Shown here in pieces: positions 25,214 to 64,000 of a DNA stretch of 64,000 bases; the stretch's first letter is position 1; each line of letters opens with the position of its first letter. A program made the position numbers and the translations under genes. Location: assembly GCF_058153355.1 (NCBI RefSeq), contig NZ_CM177019.1. One strand, written 5' to 3'. Below the pieces are notes generated by a model. That model ran no database searches. It saw only the letters and a program-made list of their open reading frames with translations, and was not told the DNA's origin.

Positions 25214-25225
25214 TGCTAATTCCTT

Positions 25226-40066: not shown

Positions 40067-40082
40067 CGAGGATATAGTTTGA

Positions 40083-40397: not shown

Positions 40398-40406
40398 TGT
40401 AGCCTC

Positions 40407-41671: not shown

Positions 41672-41807
41672 ACTTATCTCTTTATTTAAAGTAAAAATGA
41701 AAATATTATGGTATCAGCTACGTGGTGGTAACTGGTGTTTATGATCATAGGTACACATATACAGGGAACCCTGGAAAACAAAAGTAATATATTGATGATT
41801 TCGTTTG

Positions 41808-42047: not shown

Positions 42048-42068
42048 TTTTTATCTCACCTATCAAAT

Positions 42069-42098
42069 TTAGATAAATAATATAAATTAGATAAATAA
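42069..42098. repeat. two 12-bp direct repeats (ttagataaataa) 18 bp apart, upstream of the 79-aa gene
   Basis: Exact copies lie at 42069-42080 and 42087-42098, 22-51 nt upstream of the start codon at 42047. Confidence 0.6.
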
Positions 42099-42261
42099 GA
42101 TAATCAATAGTTTTTACCATATGAATAATGGATGTGGATTGTTTCTTTTTCATTTCTGATATGGAGTACAAAATGGGGTCACAATGAAGAAGCGATGAAT
42201 GGAGGCGAGCTTGCATCTGCAAGCCTCTTCCCCTAATCTGGCACAAAATATAGAGATTCAA

Positions 42262-43978: not shown

Positions 43979-44033
43979 GCACCTTACTATAGCTGCTTTG
44001 GTTATTGTCAGTATTTGGCGCTGACATTCAGGG

Positions 44034-44861: not shown

Positions 44862-44912
44862 ATAAGAAGCAGTGATATACTCCCACCAGACTCCCTGGCA
44901 GGAAAAAGACAA

Positions 44913-45659
44913 ATGGAACAAGCGCATACCCAGCTGATTGCCCAACTGAACGAACGTATTTTAGCGGCGGATAACACGCCGCTTTATATTAAGTTTGCCG
45001 AAACGGTGAAAAATGCCGTGCGCAGCGGGGTGCTGGAACATGGCAATATTTTACCCGGCGAGCGCGATTTAAGTCAGTTAACCGGCGTTTCGCGTATTAC
45101 GGTGCGCAAGGCGATGCAGGCGCTGGAAGAAGAGGGCGTGGTGACACGTTCGCGCGGCTACGGCACGCAGATTAATAACATCTTTGAATACTCGTTAAAA
45201 GAAGCGCGAGGATTTTCTCAGCAGGTGGTGTTGCGCGGGAAAAAGCCCGATACGCTATGGGTTAACAAGCGAATGGTTAAATGCCCTGAAGAGGTGGCGC
45301 AGCAATTGGCGGTCGAAGCGGGTAGTGATGTCTTTTTGCTTAAGCGTATTCGCTATGTTGATGAAGAAGCGGTCTCTATTGAGGAGTCGTGGGTTCCGGC
45401 GCATTTAATTCATGATGTTGATGCCATCGGAATCTCTCTTTATGACTACTTCCGCAGTCAGCATATTTTTCCAAAGCGTACCCGTTCCCGCGTTAGCGCC
45501 CGGATGCCGGATGCCGAGTTTCAGTCACATATTCAATTAGATAGTAAAATACCGGTGCTGGTGATCAAGCAAGTGGCGCTTGACCAACAGCAACGGCCTA
45601 TTGAGTACAGCATCAGCCACTGTCGCAGTGATCTATACGTTTTTGTGTGTGAGGAGTAG
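44913..45659 (+). CDS. yegW: GntR/HutC-family transcriptional regulator
   Basis: 248 aa with an N-terminal wHTH (LPGERDLSQLTGVSRITVRKAMQALEEEG) and a UTRA-type C-terminal domain. Confidence 0.88.
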   Translation: MEQAHTQLIAQLNERILAADNTPLYIKFAETVKNAVRSGVLEHGNILPGERDLSQLTGVSRITVRKAMQALEEEGVVTRSRGYGTQINNIFEYSLKEARGFSQQVVLRGKKPDTLWVNKRMVKCPEEVAQQLAVEAGSDVFLLKRIRYVDEEAVSIEESWVPAHLIHDVDAIGISLYDYFRSQHIFPKRTRSRVSARMPDAEFQSHIQLDSKIPVLVIKQVALDQQQRPIEYSISHCRSDLYVFVCEE

Positions 45660-46598
45660 TTCCTCGCGGGTTGGCGCGCAATCACCGCCGCGATGCCCGA
45701 CAACCCACGACGCCACTGCATTGCCCAGCAATACGGCATCCGCCAGTGGCAAACCAGAGGCCAGTCCAGCTAATACGCCACCTGCATGACTGTCGCCCGC
45801 CCCAATGGTGTCTACAACTTGCGTTGGAAATGCCGGGATGCAGCCAGAAGCGTTATTGCTGAAATACCATGCGCCTTCTTTATCCAGACGGACGATCAAC
45901 GACGCGGCAAATTTCTCCTGCCATTGTTTGCCAAGTGTTGTTATCTCTGCGGATAAAGCAAAACGTTCGGCGGCAATCTCAGCCTCTTGACGATTGAGTG
46001 ACACTAAAGGTCGACAGGCCATGATCCGCGCCAGTAATGCATCCGGGATATCGCCAATACGTGGGCCAAAATCGATGAACGGCGTCACGTCTTGCAGACT
46101 CTCCAGCCATTCCACTAATAATTCACCGCAGGGCGAGGCCAGTTGATAACCGGAAAAATAGAGCAGGCTGCCAGGCGCAACGGTTAATCGCGCCAACCAT
46201 TCGCGATTCCACTGATTTTCCACACCACTGAACGACATAAACGTGCGTTCACCATCAGGCTCAACCAGCGCCAGACACCAGCCGTTATCGCCTTCGGCGT
46301 TATCGATGAGGCTGATTAATCCTTCTTTCGCCATCCGGTTACGAATAATTTCCGCCCACACACCCTGGCCGAGCGGCAGGGCATTACCCGCTTCGATACC
46401 GAGGCGATTTAACGCCACGGCAATATTCAGTGCACAGCCGCCAACGTTAACGCTCTGCTGTTTCAGTTCGATATCGCACCCACGCCAGGGTAGGGCATAA
46501 GCGTCGGCGATCACATCAATGACCGCCGCGCCGACGACCATCACCGGCTGACGCGTGGTTAATTCAGGCAGCAGCGTGTGTAATCGAGCGCCGCTCAT
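45633..46598 (-). CDS. yegV: PfkB-family sugar/nucleoside kinase
   Basis: 321 aa with the C-terminal PfkB signature (DTIGAGDSHAGG). Its 3' end overlaps the yegW 3' end by 27 nt. Confidence 0.85.
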   Translation of the reverse strand: MSGARLHTLLPELTTRQPVMVVGAAVIDVIADAYALPWRGCDIELKQQSVNVGGCALNIAVALNRLGIEAGNALPLGQGVWAEIIRNRMAKEGLISLIDNAEGDNGWCLALVEPDGERTFMSFSGVENQWNREWLARLTVAPGSLLYFSGYQLASPCGELLVEWLESLQDVTPFIDFGPRIGDIPDALLARIMACRPLVSLNRQEAEIAAERFALSAEITTLGKQWQEKFAASLIVRLDKEGAWYFSNNASGCIPAFPTQVVDTIGAGDSHAGGVLAGLASGLPLADAVLLGNAVASWVVGHRGGDCAPTREELLLTHKNV

Positions 46599-47599
46599 AC
46601 CGCCTCCCGTTGTTGGCGATACTTCGCCAGCGCCGTGGCGTAATGATTAAAATCAAGCTGATTTACCGCATCCAGCTCCGTCTTAAACGCAGGATCGATA
46701 GCGTTAACGCCATGCAATGCGCCGCAAATCGCCGTCGCCATAGCGCCGATGGTGTCTGTGTCGCCGCCAAGATTGGCGCACAGAATGGCGCAGCGATTCG
46801 GGTCGGTTTGTGCCAGTTCAACCAGCGCAATGGCGCACGGAACGGACTCAATAGTGCTGGTACCTGCGCCAATGACCTGGTAAAGCTGTTCGCTGGCGGA
46901 TTCGGTGCCGTCGGCATTGCGCACAATTTTCAGCGCAATCTCCAGACGTGCTGCCAGTGAGGCGCTGAAGGTAGTGATGCGTTTTTGCTGTGCATGTCGC
47001 GCAATTGAAGGCAGTGAATCAACAATCGCTGACCAGCTTTCTCCGTCAATGGCACGAGAAACCGCCCATGCGATGACTACCGCGCCTGCCACCGCCAGAT
47101 CGGATTTATGAGTCGGGCTGGACGCCAGCGCTACATCATCAATAAAGGAATCAACATCACGCGCCGGAAGCAAACAACCTAATGGCGAGACGCGCATCGC
47201 TGCGCCGTTAGTCACGCCATTGTTTTCCAGTTCAGCAACGGGTTTACCGTCGCGAATGGCGTTAAGCGCAATCTTCGAAGTTGGGCCAAGCACGTTTTTG
47301 TTAAAGGCGTTGAAACGCAGCGCCCAGTCGAGAATATTACGCCCAATCAGATCCGGATCGATCTCGCCTTCACGTTCCAGTAACGCATCCGCCAGACACA
47401 GCGCCATTGAGGTATCGTCGGTGAATTCGGCGCGGTTAAAATAACAGGCCGCGTTATTCTCCTTTGGTCCAGGCAGAAAACGGTCAATCCAGCCAAAGTG
47501 TGCTTTAACGCGGCTGCGTGGCCAAAGCTCGGAGGGCATCCCCATCGCATCCCCTAACGCCTGCCCATAAAGAGCACCGAGAATACGTTCTGTTTTCAT
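46595..47599 (-). CDS. yegU: ADP-ribosylglycohydrolase-family protein
   Basis: 334 aa with the N-terminal motif GALYGQALGDAMGMP. It overlaps yegV by 4 nt. Confidence 0.85.
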   Translation of the reverse strand: MKTERILGALYGQALGDAMGMPSELWPRSRVKAHFGWIDRFLPGPKENNAACYFNRAEFTDDTSMALCLADALLEREGEIDPDLIGRNILDWALRFNAFNKNVLGPTSKIALNAIRDGKPVAELENNGVTNGAAMRVSPLGCLLPARDVDSFIDDVALASSPTHKSDLAVAGAVVIAWAVSRAIDGESWSAIVDSLPSIARHAQQKRITTFSASLAARLEIALKIVRNADGTESASEQLYQVIGAGTSTIESVPCAIALVELAQTDPNRCAILCANLGGDTDTIGAMATAICGALHGVNAIDPAFKTELDAVNQLDFNHYATALAKYRQQREAV

Positions 47600-48873
47600 T
47601 TAACTTCCCCTTGTGTCAACGCAATATCGCGATCATCGACCTTGATAGCCGTAATTTCGTTGTCGGATTCGCGGAAAAAAATCATGAACAGCACGGCGAT
47701 AATGGCAATCATCACCGCGCCGAAAGTCCACATCCCGGACCAGTTGAAAGTCAGTCCGTTTACCGGTTCCGGATAAGCGAACATTTTCTCCATCATCACA
47801 CCGCCAAGACGATAGCCGAGCAAACTGCCGAATCCCTGGCAGCAGAGCGTGATCAGCCCCTGCGCAGCGGTACGCATATGCACGGGGGCTTTTTTATCGA
47901 CATAGATGTAAGCGGTAACGTAGTAAAAATCGTAACTTACTCCATGCAGCAAAATGCCAAGGAACAGTAACGCGTAGGTGAAATATTCATCCGCACTACC
48001 GTAAATAAAGAAGCCATAGCGGATCGCAGCGGTGACCAGACCAAGTAATAATACCTTTTTGATACCAAAGCGTTTGGTAAAAAACGGCAATGCCAGCATA
48101 AAGAAGATTTCAGAGAACTGGCCGAGCGTCATCCAGCCGGTGGCGTTTTTCATGCCGACTTCTGTCAGATAACCGTTGGCAAAGATGTAATAGAACGCCA
48201 GTGGCATCGCAAACAGGAATGAACAGAAGAAAAAGACGAGGAAGTTTTTATCGCGCAGCAGGATCAGCGCATCCAGGCCTAGCATGACTTTAATGTCCAT
48301 TTTGCCGGTGCTTTTTGGCGGCGTGTCGGGCAGGAAAAACGCAAACACACCGAGTAATGCGGAGCTTCCGGCGGTAATTAATAGTGGAATATTGGTCGGT
48401 GAGATATCGTCATATCCCAGCATCTGAGGCAGGAATCCGCAGACCAGGCCAGAGGCAATCCAGCCTATAGTCCCCAGTACGCGAATGCGCGGAAAATCGC
48501 GCTCCACATCCGGGACGTTAGCAAACGCGATGCTGTTAGTCAGCGCAATGGTCGGCATATAGGTCAATGAGTAGGCCAGCAGTAACGGGAAGAACCCGGC
48601 AAAAGTAGTCTGTTGCGCAGCGAAATACATCAGCACCGCACCAGCGAACATCAATACCGCCAGCACTTTCTGCGCCGAGAAAAAGCGGTCAGTGATGGAG
48701 CCAACCAGAATTGGCGACAGGATCGCCGCAATGGCGGTACAGGCATACGACCAGCCAATTTCCCCGGCACTAAAACCGCTTTTACTTAACCACAACCACA
48801 ATGGCACAAACCACGCGCCCCAGATAAACCATTCAACAAACATCATGAACGACAGCTTTGCTGTTGTTTTCAT
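47596..48873 (-). CDS. yegT: MFS nucleoside transporter (NupG/XapB family)
   Basis: 425 aa with 12 predicted TM segments. It overlaps yegU by 4 nt. Confidence 0.88.
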   Translation of the reverse strand: MKTTAKLSFMMFVEWFIWGAWFVPLWLWLSKSGFSAGEIGWSYACTAIAAILSPILVGSITDRFFSAQKVLAVLMFAGAVLMYFAAQQTTFAGFFPLLLAYSLTYMPTIALTNSIAFANVPDVERDFPRIRVLGTIGWIASGLVCGFLPQMLGYDDISPTNIPLLITAGSSALLGVFAFFLPDTPPKSTGKMDIKVMLGLDALILLRDKNFLVFFFCSFLFAMPLAFYYIFANGYLTEVGMKNATGWMTLGQFSEIFFMLALPFFTKRFGIKKVLLLGLVTAAIRYGFFIYGSADEYFTYALLFLGILLHGVSYDFYYVTAYIYVDKKAPVHMRTAAQGLITLCCQGFGSLLGYRLGGVMMEKMFAYPEPVNGLTFNWSGMWTFGAVMIAIIAVLFMIFFRESDNEITAIKVDDRDIALTQGEVK

Positions 48874-49129
48874 CTTTTAATTCCTTCATGACAGGTAATG
48901 TAAGGTACGCGATGACAATACCATTTAATAATACCTTTTAAATACCTTTGCGGTGAAAACTTGACCGCGGTAACATTTTTTCTGATGAATCGAGCCAACA
49001 GAAAACGCTGAAAAAACATCCAAAAGATGGAAAAACTCGCCTGTAACGACCAGGATTATGATTGCCCGCAAAAGGCGGGCCAGGACAATCCATAGCCGAT
49101 ATCCAATCGGAATTTACGGGAGCATAGTA

Positions 49130-50182
49130 ATGACAGATATTGCGCAGTTGCTTGGCAAAGACGCCGACAACCTTTTACAGCACCGTTGTATGACTATTCC
49201 TTCTGACCAGCTTTATCTCCCCGGACATGACTACGTAGACCGCGTGATGATTGACAATAATCGCCCGCCAGCGGTGTTACGTAATATGCAGACGTTGTAC
49301 AACACCGGGCGCCTGGCTGGCACAGGATATCTTTCTATTCTGCCGGTTGACCAGGGCGTTGAGCACTCTGCCGGAGCTTCATTTGCCGCTAACCCGCTCT
49401 ACTTTGACCCGAAAAACATTGTTGAACTGGCGATCGAAGCGGGCTGTAACTGTGTGGCGTCAACCTACGGCGTGCTGGCATCGGTATCGCGGCGTTACGC
49501 GCATCGCATTCCATTCCTCGTCAAACTTAATCACAACGAGACGCTAAGTTACCCGAATACCTACGATCAAACGCTGTATGCCAGCGTGGAGCAGGCGTTC
49601 AACATGGGCGCGGTGGCGGTTGGCGCGACCATCTATTTTGGCTCGGAAGAGTCACGTCGCCAGATTGAAGAAATTTCTGCGGCCTTTGAACGTGCGCACG
49701 AACTGGGCATGGTGACCGTGCTGTGGGCCTATTTGCGTAACTCCGCCTTTAAGAAAGATGGCGTTGATTACCATGTTTCCGCCGACCTGACAGGTCAGGC
49801 GAACCATCTGGCGGCAACCATAGGTGCAGATATCGTCAAACAAAAAATGGCGGAAAATAACGGCGGTTATAAAGCGATTAATTACGGTTATACCGACGAT
49901 CGCGTGTACAGCAAGTTGACCAGCGAAAACCCGATTGATCTGGTGCGTTATCAGTTAGCTAACTGCTATATGGGCCGGGCAGGGTTGATAAACTCCGGCG
50001 GTGCTGCAGGCGGTGAAACTGACCTCAGCGATGCAGTGCGTACTGCGGTCATCAACAAACGCGCTGGCGGAATGGGGCTGATTCTTGGACGTAAGGCGTT
50101 CAAGAAATCGATGGCTGACGGCGTGAAACTGATTAACGCCGTGCAGGACGTTTATCTCGATAGCAAAATTACTATCGCCTGA
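49130..50182 (+). CDS. fbaB: class I fructose-bisphosphate aldolase
   Basis: The ATG at 49130 gives [20 protein letters not shown]…, 350 aa. The track ORF is 5'-extended by 24 codons. Confidence 0.92.
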
Positions 50183-50209
50183 TACGCCTCATACGAACAG
50201 CACTACCCC

Positions 50210-50335
50210 GTAGGGCGGATAAGGCGTTCACACCGCATCCGGCAACCTATGCCTGATGCGACGCTGAAGCGTCTTATCATGCCTACACAGCGCTGCCACG
50301 TATGCCGGATAAGGCGTTTACGTTGCATCTGGCAT
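50210..50335. repeat. BIME: three REP units
   Basis: The three units are gtagggcggataaggcgttcacaccgcatccggcaac, atgcctgatgcgacgctgaagcgtcttatcatgcctac and tatgccggataaggcgtttacgttgcatctggcat. Confidence 0.88.
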
Positions 50336-50356
50336 AAAAACACGCGCACTTCGTTA

Positions 50357-50384
50357 CGGCTTCCCCCGGGAGGCCGTTTTTTTT
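50357..50384 (+). terminator. Rho-independent terminator after fbaB and the BIME
   Basis: cggcttccc…gggaggccg forms a stem followed by T8. Confidence 0.75.
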
Positions 50385-50442
50385 ACCTGTCATTCTGATT
50401 AATTTTCATATTGTCGTTTTTGTGATCGTTATCTCGACATTT

Positions 50443-51366
<924 letters not shown>

Positions 51367-51367
51367 A

Positions 51368-52644
<1,277 letters not shown>

Positions 52645-52653
52645 GGACGGTAT

Positions 52654-53103
52654 ATGACTAACCTGTTTGTTCGTAGCGGAATTTCTTTTGTCGATCGTAG
52701 CGAAGTTTTAACCCATATCGGTAATGAGATGATCGCGAAAGGTGTGGTTCATGAAACCTGGCCACAGGCATTAATTGCCAGAGAAGCAGAATTCCCCACC
52801 GGGATAATGCTTGAACAGCACGCCATTGCAATACCGCATTGTGAGGCGATTCATGCTAAGTCGTCAGCTATTTATCTGTTAAGACCGGCGAATAAAATAA
52901 AGTTTCAGCAAGCTGATGATGATAACGACGTGGCGGTGTCGTTGATTATCGCGCTGATTGTCGAAAATCCGCAGCAGCAACTGAAGCTTTTGCGGTGCTT
53001 ATTTGGCAAGTTGCAGCAACCAGATATCGTTGAAACGCTAATCACCATTTCTGAATCGCAATTAAAGGAATATTTCACACAGCATATTTTAGATTCCGAA
53101 TAA
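52654..53103 (+). CDS. gatA: galactitol PTS EIIA
   Basis: 149 aa of the PTS EIIA-2 family (the active-site His lies in AIAIPHCEA). Confidence 0.9.
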   Translation: MTNLFVRSGISFVDRSEVLTHIGNEMIAKGVVHETWPQALIAREAEFPTGIMLEQHAIAIPHCEAIHAKSSAIYLLRPANKIKFQQADDDNDVAVSLIIALIVENPQQQLKLLRCLFGKLQQPDIVETLITISESQLKEYFTQHILDSE

Positions 53104-53137
53104 CCAAAAACCTCTGTACCAATAAAAAGGATTGATT

Positions 53138-53428
53138 ATGAAACGCAAGATAATTGTCGCTTGCGGAGGCGCGGTTGCGACCTCTACGATGGCGGCGGAA
53201 GAAATTAAAGAGTTGTGCCATAGCCATAATATCCCCGTTGAAGTAATCCAGTGTCGGGTTAATGATAATGAAATAGAAACCTATATGGATGGCGTACATC
53301 TTATTTGTACTACCGCCAGAGTTGACCGCAGTTTTGGCGATATTCCGTTAGTTCACGGCATGCCTTTTGTTTCTGGTGTCGGTATCGAAGCATTACAAAA
53401 TAAAATTCTGACTATCTTACAGGGGTGA
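53138..53428 (+). CDS. gatB: galactitol PTS EIIB
   Basis: [22 protein letters not shown]… has the active-site Cys in VACGG. Confidence 0.9.
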
Positions 53429-53431
53429 CCT

Positions 53432-54787
53432 ATGTTTTCAGAAGTCATGCGTTATATTCTCGACCTCGGCCCTACGGTCATGTTGCCGATTGTCATCATT
53501 ATTTTTTCTAAGATATTAGGCATGAAGGCAGGCGATTGCTTTAAAGCGGGTCTGCATATCGGGATTGGCTTTGTTGGTATCGGCCTGGTGATTGGCTTAA
53601 TGCTGGATTCCATTGGCCCGGCGGCGAAAGCAATGGCGGAAAATTTCGACCTGAATCTGCATGTGGTCGATGTCGGCTGGCCGGGCTCTTCACCAATGAC
53701 CTAGGCGTCGCAAATTGCGCTGGTGGCGATTCCGATTGCGATTCTGGTTAACGTGGCGATGCTACTGACCCGTATGACGCGGGTGGTAAATGTTGATATA
53801 TGGAATATCTGGCATATGACCTTCACCGGCGCATTGCTGCATCTGGCAACCGGTTCATGGATGATAGGGATGGCGGGTGTGGTAATTCACGCGGCGTTTG
53901 TTTATAAGCTCGGCGACTGGTTTGCCCGCGATACCCGAAATTTCTTTGAGCTGGAAGGCATTGCTATTCCGCACGGTACGTCGGCGTATCTGGGGCCAAT
54001 TGCGGTGCTGGTCGATGTTATCATCGAGAAAATCCCAGGGGTTAACCGTATTAAATTTAGCGCCGACGATATTCAGCGCAAATTTGGCCCATTTGGCGAA
54101 CCTGTCACCGTGGGCTTTGTGATGGGGCTGATTATCGGCATCCTCGCGGGTTACGATGTCAAAGGTGTATTACAGCTGGCGGTAAAAACGGCGGCAGTTA
54201 TGCTGCTGATGCCACGGGTGATTAAACCCATCATGGATGGTTTAACGCCCATCGCTAAGCAGGCCCGTAGTCGTTTACAGGCGAAGTTCGGCGGTCAGGA
54301 GTTCCTGATTGGCCTTGATCCGGCGTTGCTGCTGGGGCATACGGCGGTGGTATCGGCAAGCCTGATTTTTATCCCGCTCACCATTTTAATTGCTGTTTGT
54401 GTTCCGGGTAATCAGGTACTGCCGTTTGGCGACCTTGCCACCATCGGCTTCTTTGTTGCGATGGCAGTTGCCGTGCATCGTGGAAATCTGTTCCGCACCT
54501 TAATCTCGGGTGTCATCATTATGAGCATCACCCTGTGGATCGCGACGCAAACTATTGGTTTGCACACCCAACTGGCGGCTAATGCTGGGGCGTTAAAAGC
54601 CGGGGGCATGGTGGCTTCAATGGATCAGGGCGGTTCTCCCATTACCTGGTTACTGATTCAGGTTTTCTCCCCGCAAAATATTCCCGGTTTCATTATTATC
54701 GGTGCCATTTATCTTACCGGTATTTTCATGACCTGGCGTAGAGCGCGCGGCTTTATTAAACAAGAGAAAGCCGTTCTCGCAGAATAA
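53432..54787 (+). pseudogene. gatC: galactitol PTS EIIC interrupted by an in-frame TAG (codon 91)
   Basis: The two track ORFs (53432-53704 and 53723-54787) are in the same reading frame. Reading through the TAG at 53702-53704 gives …GWPGSSPMT*ASQIALVAIPIAIL…, a continuous EIIC. The intact protein has Trp (TGG) at this position, as I recall. Confidence 0.85.
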
Positions 54788-55326
54788 TTTTTACCTGAGG
54801 GGGAGTTTATCCCCCTTAATAATCAGGAGTTTTTATGAAATCAGTGGTGAATGATACTGATGGTATCGTACGCGTTGCCCAACGAGTCATTCCTGAAATT
54901 AAACATCAGGATGAGGTGCGGGTAAAAATTGCCAGCTCGGGATTATGTGGTTCCGATTTACCCAGAATTTTTAAAAATGGTGCACATTATTATCCAATAA
55001 CGTTAGGCCATGAATTTAGCGGCTATATTGATGCTGTGGGATCCGGTGTTGATGATTTACATCCTGGCGATGCGGTTGCCTGTGTGCCGTTATTACCCTG
55101 TTTTACTTGTCCAGAGTGTCTGAAAGGGTTTTATTCCCAGTGCGCAAAATATGATTTTATTGGCTCACGGCGTGATGGTGGGTTTGCCGAATATATTGTC
55201 GTTAAGCGGAAAAATGTCTTTGCTCTACCTGCGCATATGCCTATTGAGGATGGGGCTTTTATTGAACCGATTACCGTTGGCCTGCATGCTTTCCATTTAG
55301 CGCAAGGTTGTGAGAATAAAAACGTT

Positions 55327-55339
55327 ATTATTATTGGTG
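55327..55339. repeat. IS4 target-site duplication, left copy (attattattggtg)
   Basis: An identical 13-mer lies at 56766-56778, immediately outside the right IR. Confidence 0.85.
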
Positions 55340-56765
55340 TAATGCCAGTCAGTTAAGCAACTGACTGGCTCTTTTTCGGGGCTGTGGGGTATTTCCAGGG
55401 CCTCTCCTTTACCACTCTCGGGAAGGCCCTTTCCCTTCTTGTCGGTAATTTCACAAGTTGTCCCATACTTGCAAGATCGCGCATCAGCTCCGGTATACGT
55501 CCCGGTGAAGCGCCCTGCAATGTCATCAGCATTCTCATCACCATTCCGCATGATTCTGAGAAACTCAGTTGATTCGGCCAGTAACCTTTCAGATGTTCCG
55601 CCATTTTAATCATCTGATATCTCACCAGATTATAAGCCAGTAAGACACCCCACAGCTCTTGCTCCACAAGCTCCGGCTTTTTACTTCTCAGCGTCAGCCT
55701 GCTCAGTTGCATCGTCTGTTTTATCTCCCTGTATCCCAGTTCGATTTCCCAGCGATGACTGTACAGATCCGCCATTTCTCCTCCGGGGAAGCGCATGGCG
55801 TCCGTCATCGACGTCAGCAGATGGCAGACTTTTCCTTTGCGCGTCACGGTCAGCAGGCGGGCTGTCACTTCATTTCCCAGTCCCGGCCACTTTTTTCGTG
55901 CCTGCGGGCTGGTTTTCAGCTTCACCAGATGATCGCCTTTACCCAGTTTTCTGATCTCTTCATATTGCGCTCCCTTTCTGAGAGGTATCATCCAGTGGCG
56001 GTGTTCTCCCGCCAGGCTCCAGGCATTTAACAGTCCCAGTGAGTAATAACCTTTATCCATTAACGTCAGAGTGTTATCGCCGGTTTGTTCTATAAGTTGC
56101 TCAGCAAGCTCATTTTCGCTGTTCTTCATCGTGCCGAAGGCTGCAGCCGTCAGCAGATGGCTGGTCAGTTCCATCTGGCAGACCATTTTGACCTGCGGGT
56201 AGAGCGCCGGGTTCCCGGCATGTGTCTGGCGGGGGAAGGCTGCATCGTTCTCTGGTGTATCCGGTGTGCGCCAGAACACACCATCGATGGCCAGCAGGGT
56301 CAGGCCGCACCAGTGCGGATGCGGCGTGGCGTTATGCCAGAGCTGCGCTGTTTTCGTGAACACGCGGCGGACAGCCTCACTTCCCAGGCGCTGGCGGGCC
56401 TGAATAACGGCACTGGGGGCAACGAAGGGGCGATTGCCCGGCAGCATGATGTCCAGGCGATTCACAATCTGGTGAAGAGGTTCTTTACGCTCAAGCGCCA
56501 TGCCAACAATACACCAGACCATCATTTCGAGGGGAAGACGGCGCTTGCGTAGCGTTACAGTACCTGATTCGGCAAGGCAACGAGAGATGAGTTCGGGGTC
56601 GAGGTAATCCCCCAGAGAAGTCAGTGGGTTACGCAGAGAATCGTAACGGGATACCAGATCAAGAGCCTGTCCAATGTGCATAAAAAAATCCGGAAACAAG
56701 TGAGCGTTTCCGGATTCTTACACAGCCACTGGATCGGTCAACTGATCCTTAACTGATCGGCATTA
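55340..56765 (-). mobile_element. IS4 insertion sequence, complete (1,426 bp)
   Basis: The terminal inverted repeats are taatgccagtcagttaag (left) and taatgccgatcagttaag (right, reverse complement). They match at 16 of 18 positions. The element is flanked by a 13-bp direct duplication, and its length equals the IS4 length I remember. Confidence 0.93.
55353..56681 (-). CDS. insG: IS4 transposase (DDE, InsG)
   Basis: [35 protein letters not shown]… through …YREIK…, 442 aa from the ATG at 56681. Confidence 0.93.
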
Positions 56766-56778
56766 ATTATTATTGGTG
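56766..56778. repeat. IS4 target-site duplication, right copy (attattattggtg)
   Basis: An identical 13-mer lies at 55327-55339. Confidence 0.85.
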
Positions 56779-57419
56779 CCGGAACCATTGGCCTGCTGGC
56801 CATTCAGTGCGCTGTCGCGCTGGGAGCAAAGAGTGTGACGGCTATCGACATTAGCTCAGAAAAACTGGCACTGGCAAAATCTTTCGGTGCGATGCAAACA
56901 TTTAACAGCCTTGAAATGAGCGCGCCGCAAATGCAGCCCGTTTTACGCGAGCTGCGCTTTAATCAGCTTATCCTCGAGACGGCTGGCGTCCCGCAAACCG
57001 TCGAACTGGCGGTAGAGATTGCCGGGCCTCATGCCCAGCTGGCGCTGGTGGGCACGTTGCATCAGGATCTGCATTTAACATCGACAACGTTTGGCAAAAT
57101 ATTACGTAAAGAGCTGACGGTTATCGGCAGTTGGATGAACTACTCCAGCCCTTGGCCGGGGCAGGAGTGGGAAACGGCGAGCCGGTTGCTGACAGAACGT
57201 AAGTTAAGCCTGGAGCCATTAATCGCTCACCGTGGAAGCTTTGAAAGCTTCGCCCAGGCGGTGCGTGACATCGCTCGTAATGCTATGCCGGGCAAAGTGT
57301 TGCTTATTCCCTGAAACCGCGGGCCAGCGTGATGCTGGCCCGGTATTGTGCAAAACAGATCATTCACCAATGGTCCCCCTTCGTTTACACTAGCCACAAT
57401 TGAATATGGGTAAATGACG

Positions 57420-58193
57420 ATGAATTCATTCGAGCGAAGGAATAAGATCATCCAATTAGTGAATGAACAGGGAACCGTGCTTGTTCAGGATCTGGCGGGA
57501 GTATTTGCTGCCTCGGAAGCGACAATCCGTGCCGATTTGCGCTTTCTCGAACAAAAAGGCGTGGTTACGCGCTTTCATGGCGGTGCGGCGAAAATAATGT
57601 CCGGTAATAATGAAACCGAGACCCAGGAAGTCGGGTTTAAAGAGCGATTTCAGCTCGCCAGCGCGCCGAAAAACAGAATAGCGCAGGCGGCAGTCAAAAT
57701 GATCCACGAAGGGATGACCGTTATTCTCGACAGCGGAAGTACGACAATGCTTATCGCCGAAGGTTTAATGACCGCCAAAAATATCACGGTGATTACCAAC
57801 AGTCTCCCGGCGGCGTTTGCCCTTTCCGAAAATAAAGACATTACTCTGGTCGTCTGTGGTGGCACGGTCCGCCATAAAACGCGCTCGATGCATGGCTCCA
57901 TTGCCGAGCGTTCATTGCAGGATATTAATGCCGATTTAATGTTTGTCGGTGCTGATGGTATTGATGCGGTTAATGGTATTACGACCTTTAATGAAGGTTA
58001 TTCGATTAGCGGTGCGATGGTCACAGCCGCTAATAAAGTGATTGCCGTTCTCGATTCATCGAAATTTAACCGTCGCGGTTTTAATCAGGTACTGCCAATC
58101 GAAAAAATTGACATTATTATTACTGATGATGCCGTGTCAGAGGTGGATAAACTGGCATTGCAGAAAACACGGGTGAAATTAATTACGGTGTAG
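57420..58193 (+). CDS. gatR: DeoR-family repressor of the gat operon, apparently intact
   Basis: MNSFERRNKIIQLVNEQGTVLVQDLA… has a DeoR HTH and a sugar-binding domain. An alternative ATG lies at 57414. The reading frame is uninterrupted. Confidence 0.88.
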   Translation: MNSFERRNKIIQLVNEQGTVLVQDLAGVFAASEATIRADLRFLEQKGVVTRFHGGAAKIMSGNNETETQEVGFKERFQLASAPKNRIAQAAVKMIHEGMTVILDSGSTTMLIAEGLMTAKNITVITNSLPAAFALSENKDITLVVCGGTVRHKTRSMHGSIAERSLQDINADLMFVGADGIDAVNGITTFNEGYSISGAMVTAANKVIAVLDSSKFNRRGFNQVLPIEKIDIIITDDAVSEVDKLALQKTRVKLITV

Positions 58194-58204
58194 CATTGTT
58201 CTTT

Positions 58205-58237
58205 ATGCCGGATAAGGTGTGTACACCGAATCCGGCA
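58205..58237. repeat. single REP element
   Basis: atgccggataaggtgtgtacaccgaatccggca. Confidence 0.8.
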
Positions 58238-58274
58238 ACACTGATACTCCCTGAATTAAGAAAGGGAAATTTGA

Positions 58275-59174
58275 TTAACGCAATAATGGACAATCCGGTG
58301 GTAATCGACAGCGCAATGCTGCCGGAAGTATTTCAATATGGAAGTTTTGTCCACTCAACGGTTCGCCATCAAGATTAAAGGTAATTTCGTGTGGCGCTTG
58401 TATATCGAACCACGCCGAAGCACCTTCGATAATATTCGGGTTATCTTCGTCAGATTTTAAGGTTGATACGAGAGCCGGAAGAATTTCATCGCCGGTGAAA
58501 ATGCGTAGTTGCAGCAAGCCGTCGTTAATTAATGCGTTCGGGCACAATTGCTGACCGCCACCTGCCTGACGGCCGTTACCAATACCAATGACTAGTGCGT
58601 CACCTTGCCAGTGAAAGTTTTCACCGCGGATTTCACAACGGTCCGGTTGCAGTGTATCCATGCGCATTAAGCCGTGAATGATGTAAGAGACGCCACCCAG
58701 CGCGGCTTTTAATTTTTCCGGCGTTTCTGTGGTAATACGTGTCCCAAACCCACCCGTTGCCATATTAATAAAACAGGTTTTTTTGTTGACCTGCGCCATA
58801 TCAATCGCAATAGCATCACCAGCAATTGCTAGTTTCAGCGCCTTATCCAGTGCCTCAGGTATACCCACGCTGGTCGCGAAATCGTTCGCTGTACCTAGTG
58901 GCAAAATCCCCAGCGCGGGTATGTCATCGCCCTCACACTGAATCAGCGCCGAGGAAACTTCATTAATAGTGCCATCGCCGCCACCGGCAATTACCGTTGC
59001 GACGCCCAGCTTCCGGGCCTCTTCTACAAATCGGGCGGCATCGCCTTTCTCCCAGGTGACCCGCACATGGATCGTCATTCCTTCCTCGCGCAACAGCATA
59101 ATTGCTTCGCGCAAGGGTTGATTGTCAGTACTTTTGCCGTTAAGAATCAGTAAGCTGGCGGGAAATTCTGCCAT
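58275..59174 (-). CDS. yegS: lipid kinase YegS (DAG-kinase-like fold)
   Basis: 299 aa beginning [15 protein letters not shown]…, with a GGDGT motif ([11 protein letters not shown]). Confidence 0.9.
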
Positions 59175-59259
59175 AATCGTATGCCTTTATGATTGGTCTG
59201 TAGATAGTGTAGAGCAGAAAAGAAAAGGCGGAGTCAGAACAGGATGAAAATCGGAGGAT

Positions 59260-59475
59260 AAAAAATCAGTTCAAGGATGGGGAATTCAGTGGTTACCAGT
59301 AAGGGGGGCAACGGTACACTCGGTTTTTATCGGCATAAATGATCACTGAAAGCACTTAAGCATTATTTTACTGTGGATTCAGCGTGGCAGCGAACATTAA
59401 CGGTAGTCAGGGACAAACTTCAAAAGAGCATATGCATCATATTCAACAAAGCAATGGCATCCTCAATGTACGATT
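59260..59475 (-). mobile_element. degenerate P2-family attachment core, P'-arm and integrase 3'-end remnant
   Basis: aaaaaatcagttcaaggatggggaatt (59260-59286) matches the P2 core at 60323-60349 in 18 of 27 positions by manual count. The next ~110 bp align to the arm between the P2 core and int. The minus strand then encodes …YIEDAIALLNMMHMLF*, compared with the P2 Int C-terminus …EYLQDAISLNPL…. Confidence 0.6.
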
Positions 59476-59656
59476 CCAATTATATTAAATAATTCCTATG
59501 AGGTTATCTGTGATAGGCCTCCATGTCTGTATTTCCTACTTATGTAGGAAATTCTGCACAAAACATTTATTATAATCCTATTCAATAATGACAATGATGT
59601 CATTATTATATTTCAACACTAGAGAGTGTCGTTGGTGTTTAATGGGGGAAGGTGAG

Positions 59657-59974
59657 ATGAAAAAGACAGTTGCTATATCATTAATTAGTGTTTTTCTTAT
59701 GTCTGGTTGTGCTGTGCATAATGATGAGACAAGTATCGGTAAATTCGGTCTTGCCTATAAAAGTAATATCCAGCGTAAACTCGATAACCAATACTACACT
59801 GAAGCCGAAGCATCTTTAGCCAGGGGCAGAATATCTGGTGCGGAAAATATAGTGAAAAATGATGCAGCTAATTTCTGTGTTACTCAGGGCAAAAAAATGC
59901 AGATAGTTAACCTGAAGACTGAAGGGGCAGGATTACATGGCGTCGCGCGTCTGACATTCAAATGTGGAGAGTGA
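59657..59974 (+). CDS. yegR: lipoprotein YegR, 105 aa
   Basis: The ATG at 59657 follows GGAAGGTGAG. MKKTVAISLISVFLMSGCAVHND carries a lipobox (MSGC). The track ORF is 5'-extended. Confidence 0.75.
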   Translation: MKKTVAISLISVFLMSGCAVHNDETSIGKFGLAYKSNIQRKLDNQYYTEAEASLARGRISGAENIVKNDAANFCVTQGKKMQIVNLKTEGAGLHGVARLTFKCGE

Positions 59975-60322
59975 GAATAGATTCAAGACTACCATGGACA
60001 CATCCATTTTTATCTCTGATAAGGTATTCTTCAACACCATTATTGAATGTGAGTAATAATGACAAGCAGATAGATGAAACTACAGCAGAATTTTTATTTT
60101 ATGCGGCTATCAGAAAATGATGGCATAAATATTCCTATGCTTTAGCTTCATTTTTTGTAAGCGTCAAACATGCGCGTTCTGGCTGTGCGTAGCCGGACCC
60201 TGTGCGAGCACGATGCCGTTAAGTGAAAGGCATCGTGCTATGAAGGGGAATTCTATCGATATGGTCAATGGAAGGAGGTAACCAGGTATGAATCCTTCCT
60301 TCTGTTTCATTGAATTACGCAT

Positions 60323-60349
60323 AAAAAATAAGCCCGTGTAAGGGAGATT
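60323..60349. other. P2 attachment-site core (prophage/host junction on the int side)
   Basis: aaaaaataagcccgtgtaagggagatt is the 27-nt P2 att core as I remember it. It lies 80 nt from the int stop. Confidence 0.8.
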
Positions 60350-60428
60350 TAGGGTGTCACCAGTAGGGGCTTTCAACGGTACAATGCGGGTTTGAGCGGC
60401 ATAAATTACCACTGAAAGCCCTTAAACG

Positions 60429-61442
60429 TTACTCTACTGTGGACACTGTGTGGACACTCTCGGCCTCAGTACCACCTCTTAGCGGATTAAGAGAAATGGC
60501 GTCCTGAAGGTACTCTGGCGCAAAGTGAGCGTAAACCATAGTTTGCTCAATCCGCGTGTGACCTAGTATCCGTTGTAGCGTGATAATACTTCCTCCATTA
60601 ATCATGAAATGAGTGGCAAAGCTGTGCCTTAGTGCATGTGTGGCTTGCCCCATTGGCAAATCCGGTTTTATTGCTTTCATTGTTCGTCTGAAGCGAGGGT
60701 AATCAGCATCAGGGAATAAAAAACCTCGTTTGTTATCCGCGATCATTTTGGCAACAGCCTCTGAGATCGGGACGGTGCGTGGTTTGTTTGTTTTCGTTTT
60801 AACAAACGTGACGCGGTTATGGATGATATTTTCTGCTTTCAAACGAGCTGCTTCTCCCCAACGTGCTCCAGTACTCAGGCAAAGAATCGCAATCTTTTTA
60901 TTGTCGCCGTCAAGAGCAGCAAGCAGTAAGGCAATTTCTTCCTGCGTGAGATAGCCTGTGTCTGGTTTTTCCTCCTTAAGCCTTTTTGTCCCTCTGATAG
61001 GGTGCTCACCAAAGAATAACTCCGCTTCAATCAGGGCTGTAAACATGCCGCTAATACATGTTAAATCACGATTGATACTCGAAGGTTTAATACCCTGACT
61101 TCTTCGGGTGGCGCAGTACTGGCTGATAAGCGATTTCGTAATTTGAAATGCGCATGGGTCATTCGTTATTTTTGTGAAGATTTCAATTTTTCCAAGATTA
61201 GATTTCCCATGCTCTTCGTGTTTACCCTTTAAATCCCACCAGATCTGTGTCAGCTCCGACAGACGTCGCTTGTCTGTTGGTTTTGATAGCCATTCTTTAT
61301 TGTGGTGGTTGTACAACGTGTATTTCTCGAAAGCGACAGCTTCGCTTTTCTTATCAAACTTCCTACGGATGCGTTTTCCATTACGTCCAGTAGGGCGGAT
61401 GTCCACTTCATATCGACCATCATCGAGTTTTTTGATTGCCAT
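60429..61442 (-). CDS. int: P2 integrase (tyrosine recombinase)
   Basis: 337 aa beginning MAIKKLDDGRYEVDIRPTGRNGKR…. The catalytic residue contexts are TGARWGE, HALRHSF and MVYAHF. Confidence 0.95.
   Translation of the reverse strand: MAIKKLDDGRYEVDIRPTGRNGKRIRRKFDKKSEAVAFEKYTLYNHHNKEWLSKPTDKRRLSELTQIWWDLKGKHEEHGKSNLGKIEIFTKITNDPCAFQITKSLISQYCATRRSQGIKPSSINRDLTCISGMFTALIEAELFFGEHPIRGTKRLKEEKPDTGYLTQEEIALLLAALDGDNKKIAILCLSTGARWGEAARLKAENIIHNRVTFVKTKTNKPRTVPISEAVAKMIADNKRGFLFPDADYPRFRRTMKAIKPDLPMGQATHALRHSFATHFMINGGSIITLQRILGHTRIEQTMVYAHFAPEYLQDAISLNPLRGGTEAESVHTVSTVE
60438..60457. promoter_or_regulatory. tandem tgtggacac repeats, candidate Int arm-type binding sites
   Basis: tgtggacac occurs at 60438-60446 and 60449-60457 (11-bp phasing), inside the 3' end of int next to the att arm. 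Confidence 0.5.
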
Positions 61443-61557
61443 CAGAAAACCCTCCGAGTGGTGTGTTTTTTGGCGACTACTAATCGCTTTTTTCGTGGTG
61501 GCTGAAATTTAGCCACCAATAGTAGGCACTTGTGATGAATATATTCACGATGAATTG

Positions 61558-61857
61558 TTAACCAGTCTTTTGACCGGAGTGGGGCGACGTTGTTTCGTTT
61601 TGCCCAAAGTGTGCGAGAGCGGGCGCAATTTGCCCGGACTCAGGAGCGATCTGATTGGTCATGAACCATAAAGTGTATTTGGTGAATTGTGGGGTCTGCA
61701 GGATGTTCATCATGACATCTGTTGGAGGTGTTGAACGACCACTTTCATAGTAACTCAGCGTGCCATACGGAACCCCTGTTAAATCAGCAAGTTGTTGTCT
61801 GCTCAAATACTCTGATTTTCGCATTAAGACTATCTTCTCGCTTATCGTGTTTGACAT
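61558..61857 (-). CDS. C: P2 immunity repressor C
   Basis: 99 aa with an HTH (LSRQQLADLTGVPYGTLSYYESG). It is divergent from cox. Confidence 0.92.
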   Translation of the reverse strand: MSNTISEKIVLMRKSEYLSRQQLADLTGVPYGTLSYYESGRSTPPTDVMMNILQTPQFTKYTLWFMTNQIAPESGQIAPALAHFGQNETTSPHSGQKTG

Positions 61858-61860
61858 GGT

Positions 61861-61890
61861 GTTTAGATCTCAATAGTATTTAGTTTAGAT
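61861..61890. promoter_or_regulatory. C-repressor operator half-sites (direct repeats gtttagat, 22 bp apart) in the Pe/Pc switch region
   Basis: gtttagat occurs at 61861-61868 and 61883-61890, between C and cox. I recall P2 C binding direct repeats that flank the Pe -10 region. Confidence 0.6.
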
Positions 61891-61971
61891 GTAGATTGTT
61901 TAGTGCTTGGATGTGGGCACTAAAAGGCATTATAAGGCATTAAACGCAATTCATGAGGGCTGGAGGACGAC

Positions 61972-62247
61972 ATGAGCAAGCAAGTAACACTCATGACTGA
62001 TGCGATTCCTTATCAGGAGTTCGCAAAACTAATAGGAAAATCGACAGGAGCGGTTCGTCGGATGATCGATAAAGGAAAGCTGCCTGTAATTGATATGACC
62101 GATCCACAATCAGCTTCAGGTCGTGCAGGTGAATATTGGGTATACCTTCCGGCATGGAATAACGGACTAAAACTGGCTTATGAAAGCCGCCCTAAAGAGA
62201 TTCGTGACGGCTGGTTGATGTGGTTAGGTCTCGGTGAACCACGTTAA
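61972..62247 (+). CDS. cox: P2 Cox (excisionase / Pc repressor)
   Basis: 91 aa beginning MSKQVTLMTDAIPYQEFAKLIGKSTGAVRRMIDKGKLPV…. Confidence 0.92.
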   Translation: MSKQVTLMTDAIPYQEFAKLIGKSTGAVRRMIDKGKLPVIDMTDPQSASGRAGEYWVYLPAWNNGLKLAYESRPKEIRDGWLMWLGLGEPR

Positions 62248-62257
62248 GGAGAACCGT

Positions 62258-62428
62258 ATGAATGAGCCTCGTTGTATTGCTCAGTTACTGCGTAACGAAA
62301 GCCCCAGGGCGATTGACTTCAACATCACCCACGGTAAGGGGCGTAAGGGAATCATTATCCGCACCAAAAAACAGAGTCCGTTAAAAAAGGCTCTGACCTT
62401 TCTGAAAAGCCGGAGGGTATGGAAATGA
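62258..62428 (+). CDS. P2 orf78-like small protein
   Basis: The ATG at 62258 follows AAGGAG (MNEPRCIAQLLRNESPRAIDF…). Confidence 0.7.
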   Translation: MNEPRCIAQLLRNESPRAIDFNITHGKGRKGIIIRTKKQSPLKKALTFLKSRRVWK

Positions 62429-62925
62429 CAGTGATGACGCTCAATCTCGTTGAAAAACAGCCAGCAACTATGCGCCGGATAATTGGTAAGCATCTGGCCG
62501 TCCCTCGCTGGCAGGAGACATGCGATTATTATAATCAGATGATGGAACGTGAACGGCTAACGGTTTGCTTCCATGCGCAGTTAAAACAGCGTCACGCAAC
62601 GATGCGTTTTGAAGAAATGAACGACGTCGAACGTGAACGACTGGTATGTGCAATTGATGAATTGCGTGGGGCATTCTCAAAACGCCGTCAGGTTGGCGCA
62701 AGTGAGTATGCATATATTAGTTTTTTAACAGTCAGTCAGCGTCGCACTTTATTTATGCACGCACGACTGACAGAAAAAGAATTTAACCAGCCATACTGGC
62801 GAATTAATGAAGAATCATGTTACTGGCGTGATGCTTTATTCCGTGCATTACGTGAATTATTCAGTCTGTTTGAGTATGCACCGACAATTCTGACGTCGGT
62901 AAAACCAGAGCAATATCTGCATTAA
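62419..62925 (+). CDS. B: P2 gpB (replication, helicase-loader-like)
   Basis: The protein begins MEMTVMTLNLVEKQPATMRRIIGKHLAVPRW…. An alternative ATG lies at 62425. Confidence 0.88.
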   Translation: MEMTVMTLNLVEKQPATMRRIIGKHLAVPRWQETCDYYNQMMERERLTVCFHAQLKQRHATMRFEEMNDVERERLVCAIDELRGAFSKRRQVGASEYAYISFLTVSQRRTLFMHARLTEKEFNQPYWRINEESCYWRDALFRALRELFSLFEYAPTILTSVKPEQYLH

Positions 62926-62988
62926 GTAATTAACCAGAGTTTTTAACGCACTTAATTGTGCGGGGCTTCTTTTTGCCTGGAGAAAGTC

Positions 62989-63213
62989 ATGCATACAGTT
63001 TCTGAAAATCAGTGCGGTATATACGCATTACTGCTGCAACAGGCCAGAACCGAAGCACAGGCTGACGCTGCGACGCGCTTTTCTTCTCATCTTGACGCCA
63101 TGATTCGCCACATCACAAAGGCGGAGTTATCCCGCGTGGAGATAGTCGAGCTGCTCAGTCAGGAGTCGGAAAAATTTCACAATATCGGATTGTCTCGTGG
63201 GGAGGTGCTTTGA
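62989..63213 (+). CDS. P2 orf80-like protein
   Basis: The ATG at 62989 follows GGAGAAAG ([18 protein letters not shown]…). Confidence 0.7.
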
Positions 63214-63515
63214 TGTCCTGTTCTCATTCAGTTGTATTACTGAATAACGCCTTAAAAATCGCCGTTATGGAAAATGGCGATTTGTCTCTTATTCAACTTG
63301 GTCTTGATAAAGAAAAGCGCGACATAACTGAATCTGTTATCGCGATTTATCAGAGCGAATTAAACCTCCTGTCTGATGTGATCAATTTACTTGTGAAACG
63401 CGCTGTATTTCACAAGCAAATTTCCTCAGTGGATGAACTGACAAAATTAACGACAGAACTCGCCAGCTATTGCGCTGATGAATTTAAGAAACTGAACGAC
63501 AAAAGGAACTGGTAA
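63210..63515 (+). CDS. P2 orf81-like protein
   Basis: 101 aa, with a 4-nt overlap with orf80. Confidence 0.7.
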
Positions 63516-63739
63516 TGCCGGACAACGTAGATTTCATTCAGGAACAACAGGCTGAATTACTGGAGCGCCAGATTAACGCGGCAAGGGTAAAACATTGCGG
63601 TGCTTCTGCGCTGGTTTGCGAAGAGTGTGACGCGCCAATACCTGCTGCCCGTCGTGCGGCTTATCCGTCAGCCACGCGTTGTGTTTCCTGTCAGTCAGTC
63701 TTTGAAGCAAAAAACAAACATTACCGGAGAACGGCATGA
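63515..63739 (+). CDS. P2 orf82-like DksA/TraR-type C4 zinc-finger protein
   Basis: 74 aa with CEECDAPI…CVSCQ (CxxC-N17-CxxC). Confidence 0.8.
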   Translation: MPDNVDFIQEQQAELLERQINAARVKHCGASALVCEECDAPIPAARRAAYPSATRCVSCQSVFEAKNKHYRRTA

Positions 63740-64000
63740 GTATTCGTATTGAAATTGGCGAACGTTATGTCGTTACCAGTGACAGCTTCCAGTTTATTCT
63801 CCACGAGAAAAAGAGAGCGGAAAGCGGTAAAAACGCCGGTCAGGAATGGCTGGCGGTGGTTGGTTATTACCCGAAATTAAGCCAGCTCGTTTCCGGCCTG
63901 ATGCATCACGATATTCTGACCGGAAGCGCAAAGTCTTTTGCTGATTTAAACGCGCAGGTTGAGCAACTCAGCAAGCGTTGTTCAGAGGCTTTTGGCTCAT
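63736..64000 (+). CDS. P2 orf83-like protein, 3' end off-window
   Basis: Manual translation gives MSIRIEIGERYVVTSDSFQFILHEKKRAESGKNAGQEW…. There is an ATGA overlap with orf82, and the frame is open to the window edge. Confidence 0.7.
   Translation, partial: MSIRIEIGERYVVTSDSFQFILHEKKRAESGKNAGQEWLAVVGYYPKLSQLVSGLMHHDILTGSAKSFADLNAQVEQLSKRCSEAFGS

Follow-up and report, generated by a model that had tools for sequence, protein, structure and literature searches.

Introduction

Among the described cases of disruption of the gat operon, one of the closest to the one presented here is that of Escherichia coli K-12. In strain MG1655, the repressor gene gatR is split by the insertion sequence (IS) IS3E, which makes expression of the operon constitutive, and gatC is annotated as a pseudogene. 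In the mouse gut, K-12 adapts first of all by inactivating gat, mostly by means of IS insertion (PMC3945185). When regulation was restored in K-12 with the gatR allele of E. coli HS (Sousa et al., PMC5850726), the number of gat-negative mutants recovered from mice over 19 days was zero, and constitutive gatR::IS mutants arose instead (PMC5850726; summarized in PMC10878103). Human stool commonly contains gat-negative enterobacteria (PMC5850726). The locus analyzed here is found in a stretch of 64,000 nucleotides (hereafter, the window) of contig NZ_CM177019.1, from NCBI RefSeq assembly GCF_058153355.1, and it shows a different configuration of the same operon: (i) gatC is cut short by an amber codon; (ii) gatD is split by a complete copy of IS4; and (iii) gatR is uninterrupted.

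The explanation that we favor, with a probability of about 0.78, is that a standard, complete IS4 made a lineage-private jump into the gatD gene of a gat operon that was already dead and which was decaying under relaxed selection.

The gat loci of the window and of K-12 MG1655 are alike in that the same operon has been hit by an IS and has a defective gatC. But while in K-12 the insertion (IS3E) lies in the repressor gene and renders expression constitutive, in the window the repressor gene is intact and the insertion (IS4) lies in a structural gene, gatD; moreover, the gatC defect is here a nonsense mutation, W91*. Something similar can be said of the gat-negative K-12 mutants from the mouse gut (Barroso-Batista 2014; Lourenco 2016; Sousa 2017). 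In these mutants, too, structural genes (gatC among them) are hit by IS insertions and small mutations, but the mutants arise in a gatR-null, constitutive background where loss of the pathway is strongly beneficial, and gatD is not among the targets named (PMC3945185, 0 mentions). An initial annotation of the window, drawn up from the letters alone, had stated that gatR is split by an IS in K-12, with constitutive gat expression, and that gat loss is recurrent during gut colonization by K-12; the MG1655 sequence and the mouse work cited above agree with both statements.

The IS4 Insertion in gatD

Members of the IS4 subgroup are 1,400-1,650 bp long, have ends with the signature -AATR--------WTW- and generate target duplications of 10-13 bp (PMC2266710). 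The element inserted in gatD, of which the window contains a single copy, shows all the traits of this subgroup: size, end signature, DDE motif, a 13-bp duplication and near-identity to annotated copies. Along its whole length of 1,426 bp it is 99.9% identical to IS4 copies present in many complete E. coli genomes, where they are annotated as "IS4-like element IS4 family transposase". Its terminal inverted repeats, of 18 nt each, are imperfect, with 16 of the 18 positions complementary (TAATGCCAGTCAGTTAAG versus TAATGCCGATCAGTTAAG, the latter being the reverse complement of the right end); positions 2-5 read AATG and positions 14-16 read TTA, as the subgroup signature has it. The transposase is of the single-open reading frame (ORF) DDE type, contains the YREK motif (Y(2)R(3)E(6)K) and covers the whole of two Pfam profiles, Nterm_IS4 (3e-33) and DDE_Tnp_1 (9e-32). 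At both flanks of the element, the repeat ATTATTATTGGTG measures exactly 13 bp, the bases that flank its two copies not being alike, and the single-copy empty site of a relative (see below) indicates that this repeat is a true duplication. Compared with E. coli IS4 (IS4 family, IS4 subgroup; InsG), then, the element has the same length, ends and transposase, falls within the same duplication range and is identical at 99.9%; the only difference is the insertion site, since codon 169 of gatD is unoccupied in all 5,426 complete RefSeq E. coli genomes.

The insertion took place after the first base of codon 169. If IS4 and one copy of the repeat are removed in silico, a gatD gene of 346 codons is recovered whose DNA is 100% identical to that of gatD in E. 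coli 2013C-4282, and whose product (346 amino acids) matches the solved E. coli galactitol-1-phosphate 5-dehydrogenase (PDB 4A2C) over residues 1-346 with an E-value of 2e-229. This repaired GatD is a zinc-dependent medium-chain dehydrogenase, with ADH_N and ADH_zinc_N domains and a GxGxxG motif, but the gene in the window is itself disrupted. The junction falls at NKNVIIIG|AGTIGLL in the repaired protein; in other words, IS4 breaks the dinucleotide-binding motif G168-A-G-T-I-G173 at its first glycine. At present, the 5' ORF of gatD reads into IS4 and reaches a stop at 55356, encoding a chimeric product of 173 amino acids, while most of the ADH_zinc_N domain is recognized by Pfam on a separate ORF of 159 amino acids (56835-57314). 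The initial annotation had described the element as a complete 1,426-bp IS4 with 18-bp imperfect inverted repeats and a 13-bp target duplication, placed within the Rossmann GxGxxG region of gatD, and these particulars all hold, down to its position inside GAGTIG (residues 168-173).

Interruption of gatD is otherwise rare. The gene is present in 5,102 of the 5,426 complete E. coli genomes and uninterrupted in 5,069 of them; the few exceptions include an IS1A insertion in strain ST540.

Just inside IS4, on the side where transcripts from gatD would enter, there is a terminator-like hairpin with a perfect 11-bp stem followed by TCTTTTT. Judging from this match to the consensus, the hairpin is probably oriented to stop transcripts entering the element from gatD, and it would give the insertion a polar effect on the 3' portion of gatD and perhaps also on gatR. 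The coordinates of these and other features of the locus are collected in Table 1.

Table 1. Features of the gat locus and of the IS4 element in the window (position 1 is the first nucleotide of the window).
Feature	Coordinates	Strand	Description
In-frame 6-bp tandem duplication in gatB (TAATGA TAATGA)	53260-53271	+	Two added residues; from alignment
gatC, 5' part	53432-53704	+	Codons 1-90, then amber W91* (TAG, 53702-53704)
gatC, remainder	53705-54790	+	Codons 92-451 and stop; in frame, otherwise intact
gatD, 5' part	54835-55339	+	Codons 1-168 and first base of codon 169; Pfam ADH_N
Target-site duplication, left copy	55327-55339		ATTATTATTGGTG
IS4, complete	55340-56765	minus	1,426 bp; strand is that of the transposase gene, antisense to the gat operon
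IS4 terminal inverted repeat, 3' end of the transposase gene	55340-55357		TAATGCCAGTCAGTTAAG
Terminator-like hairpin just inside IS4	55344-55369	+	Perfect 11-bp stem, then TCTTTTT; consensus match only
IS4 transposase gene (InsG-like)	55353-56681	minus	Intact ORF of 442 amino acids; Nterm_IS4 and DDE_Tnp_1
IS4 terminal inverted repeat, 5' end of the transposase gene	56748-56765		CTTAACTGATCGGCATTA
Target-site duplication, right copy	56766-56778		ATTATTATTGGTG
gatD, 3' part	56779-57314	+	Last two bases of codon 169 to codon 346 and stop; rest of the Rossmann NAD-binding domain
gatR, DeoR-family repressor	57414-58193	+	Uninterrupted ORF of 259 codons; Pfam HTH_DeoR and DeoRC

Order of the Two Lesions

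Codon 91 of gatC is TGG in the closest intact relatives. In the window it is an amber codon, which cuts the EIIC component (GatC) of the galactitol phosphotransferase system (PTS) transporter short after 90 of its 451 residues; the downstream part of the gene has one further missense change, A196V, relative to strain 2013C-4282. The amber codon lies 1,636 bp upstream of the insertion point in gatD. Two inactivating lesions within ~1.7 kb had been noticed from the start and, indeed, gatC W91* and gatD::IS4 are independent of each other.

Their order can be read from a close relative that carries one lesion but lacks the other. A contig from the short-read assembly of SRR28786219 (loci L013 and L023) shows no difference from the window over 43723-55339 and 56766-60349 (100% identity), that is, over 15.2 kb. 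Its two alignments to the window overlap by exactly the 13-bp target, and the single copy of this 13-mer corresponds to an empty IS4 site. In this contig TAG91 is present, gatD is intact (346 amino acids), and the P2-like prophage that starts at ~60350 in the window is absent. A third contig with the 354-amino acid gatC fragment of this lineage was grouped with L023 as a similar place, mostly having the same neighboring proteins. Since this near-identical relative has TAG91 but an empty IS4 site, the amber codon appears to be the older lesion. The relative L013 also has the 6-bp duplication in gatB, the gene for the PTS component EIIB, which is found neither in 2013C-4282 nor in loci L014 and L016 nor in E. 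coli HS; this duplication may represent a third degenerative change in the operon. The parsimonious order suggested by these sequences is, in consequence, the gatC amber (and the gatB duplication) first, and IS4 in gatD later.

The opposite order has a certain biochemical plausibility, based on general knowledge of sugar-phosphate toxicity: an insertion in gatD would come first, galactitol-1-phosphate would become toxic, and the gatC amber would then be selected as a compensatory mutation. It is also true that galactitol inhibits the growth of gat-expressing K-12 (PMC3945185). But a relative identical over 15.2 kb has the amber codon, an intact gatD and an empty target site, and no genome with gatD::IS4 and a wild-type gatC was found among the 5,426 complete E. 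coli genomes and the sample carrying the chimeric GatD product. This makes the reverse order extremely unlikely.

Regarding the reality of the insertion, the chimeric product of 173 amino acids was found in only one other data set, SRR31441161, also a short-read assembly. One of its contigs, with 100% identity to the window, ends 26 bp into IS4; a second contig begins 30 bp before the other end of IS4 and continues to the end of the window. The same gatC amber is found in this assembly. The junction between gatD and IS4 is present in none of the 5,426 complete E. coli genomes, and an exact search of the GTDB species representatives gave no match either. The IS4 insertion is private to this lineage.

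It could be argued that faulty assembly or laboratory passage gave rise to the IS4 copy or to one of the two lesions, given that the one other data set with the insertion possibly comes from the same isolate and that IS elements are known to transpose in stored cultures. However, the 13-bp duplication has no mismatch and agrees with an empty site that is known; both junctions are recovered in an assembly of short reads, where the contigs are interrupted within the ends of the IS in the way that a genuine repeat would produce; and the amber codon is also present on at least two further contigs from other runs, including the one without IS4 (L013/L023). The insertion is taken as genuine because both of its junctions occur in SRR31441161 in this way, and an artefact or laboratory event is very unlikely.

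The initial annotation had proposed to survey gat integrity and IS4 positions in related genomes and to reconstruct the ancestral lesion from close relatives, and it had named an assembly artefact among the outcomes that would undo its reading. The survey has given an amber-only relative and no complete E. coli genome with the junction, the reconstruction points to the amber codon as ancestral, and the two junctions in SRR31441161, together with the exact empty site in SRR28786219, speak against an artefact.

Recurrence of gatC Nonsense Alleles

The loss of gatC through a nonsense mutation is not exclusive to this lineage. The exact 90-amino acid GatC fragment that results from W91* is found on ~410 contigs, including Shigella dysenteriae 1617. 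The examples of W91* that were retrieved (loci L002-L011, from E. coli and Shigella) belong to at least eight haplotype groups which differ by up to ~3%, and the lineage of the window is ~3% away from all the other W91* haplotypes across gatC-gatR. The presence of W91* on diverged haplotypes implies that the same mutation has arisen many times.

Seven other truncations of gatC that can arise by a transition (W83*, Q94*, W124*, W127*, W143*, W163* and R169*; loci L027-L040) were counted as controls, and each of them was found on 62-249 contigs. Among the eight truncations counted, W91* is the commonest (410 versus 62-249 contigs), with a 1.6- to 6.6-fold excess that is confounded by clonal sampling. 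The carriers of R169* correspond to a single clone. Most carriers of the control alleles have an intact gatR of 259 amino acids. A 41-mer with the allele TAG91 has no match in the 5,426 complete E. coli genomes, while the control 41-mer with TGG matches 4,473 of them, which indicates that the zero is real and not a failure of a short query. A protein cluster search with the 90-amino acid fragment returned cluster representatives of mixed length, of no use for allele counts. Judging from these public sequences, gatC nonsense alleles are individually rare and broadly recurrent in gatR+ strains.

A possible source of the W91 allele is the deamination of methylated cytosines at Dcm sites. From what is established about Dcm and very-short-patch repair, deamination of the 5-methylcytosine on the opposite strand leads to a G-to-A change at the inner position of CCWGG. 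Amber hotspots at Dcm sites were reportedly described in lacI by Coulondre and Miller in 1978. Dcm methylates CCWGG sites (PMC4924334). In gatC, the ancestral context ACC TGG GCG contains the Dcm site CCTGG, and the change from ACCTGGGCG to ACCTAGGCG is a G-to-A transition (CCTGG to CCTAG). In this respect W91* resembles the Dcm amber hotspots of lacI, as deamination of the inner 5-methylcytosine on the complementary strand would produce this transition. W91* is encoded by TAG in all eight haplotype groups and by TGA in none, and the protein-based look-up through which these were found is blind to the identity of the stop codon. By comparison, W83*, whose codon is not part of a Dcm site, was found on eight distinct haplotypes out of eight, two with TAG and six with TGA. 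In three S. dysenteriae-like loci (L003, L005 and L010) there is a second gatC stop, W406*, which is also a change from CCTGG to CCTAG; only three Dcm sites in gatC can yield an amber codon, and those of W91 and W406 are two of them. In contrast to the lacI hotspots, the W91 codon of gatC may not be an exceptional hotspot, since the non-Dcm codon W83 has been hit on as many haplotypes. The fact that W91* is always TAG and the existence of W406* at another Dcm site constitute the remaining support for the Dcm mechanism. Dcm deamination, then, plausibly explains the W91 allele but would not be needed for the recurrence of gatC nonsense alleles in general.

S. dysenteriae-like genomes such as CP006736, CP026777 and CP061527 provide a close parallel to the window: a gatC W91* followed by further gat lesions. 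These later lesions are IS1 insertions in gatZ or gatA, the stop at W406 and, in one of the genomes, the loss of gatD. They differ from the window in that their gat haplotype is ~3% diverged across gatC-gatR, so the origin is independent, and in that the insertions correspond to IS1 and not to IS4. The gat genes are unmentioned in a paper on IS in Shigella (PMC7373316).

From the above, a wider pattern could be proposed in which wild gatR+ Escherichia and Shigella lose gatC by repeated, independent nonsense hits (that at W91 by deamination of a Dcm site) and then undergo secondary decay, the loss possibly being positively selected. This proposal is put forward tentatively and with low confidence.

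Relaxed Selection Versus Adaptive Loss

The GatR of the window is identical to that of E. coli HS in 258 of 259 residues, the sole change being S66N (259-amino acid numbering; RefSeq places the gatR start 6 nt downstream, which gives a protein of 257 amino acids). The exact GatR protein of the window is also encoded on other contigs with wholly intact gat operons. Due to its near-identity to the working HS allele, the gatR of the window looks functional. The initial annotation had regarded gatR as intact, while warning that missense changes might have made it non-functional; its ORF is uninterrupted and has both domains of the family, and S66N is the only departure from the working allele.

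The decay of the operon probably proceeded in two steps: (i) the ancestral TGG at codon 91 of gatC became TAG, a change observed by comparison with relatives and plausibly caused by the Dcm mechanism, with the loss of EIIC; and (ii) later, IS4 would have entered gatD by cut-and-paste DDE transposition, with a duplication of 13 bp of the target and a break at the first glycine of GAGTIG that leaves the catalytic domain apart from the Rossmann, NAD-binding one. A gatC-null cell would neither take up nor phosphorylate galactitol and, in addition, GatR, which seems to be functional, would hold its operon repressed. The second hit was probably harmless because there would be no galactitol uptake without GatC and the operon would be repressed by GatR; the insertion in gatD would have had little or no effect on fitness and would have been kept by drift, instead of being a second adaptive hit. 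Other gatC-nonsense lineages often have more gat lesions (IS1 in gatZ or gatA, a split gatR, a second gatC stop, a replaced gatD), and these further lesions favor relaxed selection after the first hit.

Alternatively, both lesions might be adaptive, if the gut selects against galactitol catabolism even in a gatR+ strain and repeated hits are required for a full shutdown of the pathway. In support of this possibility, colonization of the mouse gut by K-12 strongly selects for gat loss, and the gat-constitutive ancestor is inhibited by galactitol (PMC3945185; PMC10878103); gat-negative Enterobacteriaceae were dominant in 5 of 9 human stool samples (PMC5850726); and, among public sequences, many gatR+ haplotypes have acquired gatC nonsense alleles (eight in the case of W83*, eight in that of W91*). 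Nevertheless, the effect observed in K-12 needs constitutive expression, and when gatR was restored it was the gatR::IS constitutive mutants that were selected (PMC5850726). Furthermore, with GatC cut at residue 90 no substrate would enter the cell, leaving nothing for a second knockout to achieve, and the alleles are individually rare (0 of 5,426 genomes for W91*, versus 4,473 with TGG), which fits recurrent mutation with weak or no positive selection. Adaptation through both lesions is, for these reasons, improbable, though less so than the reverse order or an artefact.

The initial annotation had left two alternatives standing, namely relaxed selection after the first hit and selection against the pathway even when it is repressible. 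The former is favored by the greater age of the amber codon, the multi-lesion decay of other lineages and the gatB duplication shared with the amber-only relative; the latter finds no support, as gatR-restored K-12 gave no gat-negative mutants (PMC5850726).

Some considerations weigh against the neutral decay of an already dead operon as set out here. The order of events is a matter of parsimony, and the same picture would result if the relative had lost IS4 by precise excision, although this is much less likely. Either lesion may have originated in the laboratory. The neutrality of the IS4 hit is something that we infer. A consensus promoter scan found no convincing promoter of its own for gatR, which sits downstream of IS4. 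As for the Dcm step, the 64 kb of the window do not include the dcm gene, and the notion of W91 as a strong Dcm hotspot is weakened by the seven control truncations, all of which are present, and by the equal recurrence of W83*.

Strain Background and Neighboring Features

Across syntenic genes, the identity between the window and E. coli HS is only 93-96%, and the best complete genomes reach 98.7-99.2% (2013C-4282, 2020CK-00188 and WL297). A 40-mer diagnostic for the gat haplotype of the window had no match in the GTDB representatives. From these values, we infer that the strain comes from a divergent Escherichia lineage with few sampled members.

Downstream of the gat operon, a P2-like prophage (~60350-64000) adjoins yegR. 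Its integrase gene (60429-61442, minus strand; Int_N/Phage_integrase) is followed by Cox-, RepB-like and gpA-type genes, as read from a matching contig (L020). The identity between L013 and the window ends at 60349; therefore, the prophage is, like IS4, a recent gain. At the corresponding place, K-12 has a P2 remnant (PR-X, ogrK). An Rfam scan of 49000-64000, in which CyaR was looked for next to the prophage, gave only naRNA4, a nucleoid-associated RNA derived from repetitive extragenic palindromes, at 50213-50283, between fbaB and gatY (score of 60 bits; gathering threshold, 59.5). The length of this intergenic region differs between strains.

Two other regions of the window distinguish it from E. 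coli HS. The first one contains a third large paralogue (25226-29023, minus strand; 1,265 amino acids) which adjoins the counterparts of the HS DUF4132 genes (one unnamed, and yehI); some 3.6 kb of the window (25214-28827) have no counterpart in the HS alignment. The second one is an islet of 2.3 kb between rcnR and thiM (39974-42260), without a match in E. coli HS, whose ORFs encode proteins of 104 and 115 amino acids with signal-peptide-like N-termini, plus one of 79 amino acids.

Concluding Remarks

The insertion of IS4 in gatD is a fresh instance of two well-known processes, IS4 transposition and pseudogene decay in a dispensable catabolic operon, and does not amount to a new system. Taken alone it has little weight, as it adds to the IS insertions in non-essential catabolic operons one further case, limited to a single lineage. 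Its value lies in the fact that it is a clean natural case of ordered decay, first by a nonsense mutation and then by an IS, whose intermediate state is kept in a sequenced relative. If the recurrence of gatC nonsense alleles were due to positive selection, the loss of galactitol uptake would be advantageous in the wild despite proper regulation, contrary to the results obtained in mice with gatR-restored K-12. The TAG-only signature at the Dcm site of W91 is usable as an internal marker of mutational bias when selection and mutation pressure are to be told apart. In any case, wild gatR+ strains also undergo recurrent gat inactivation, a process well known from the mouse-gut work with K-12.

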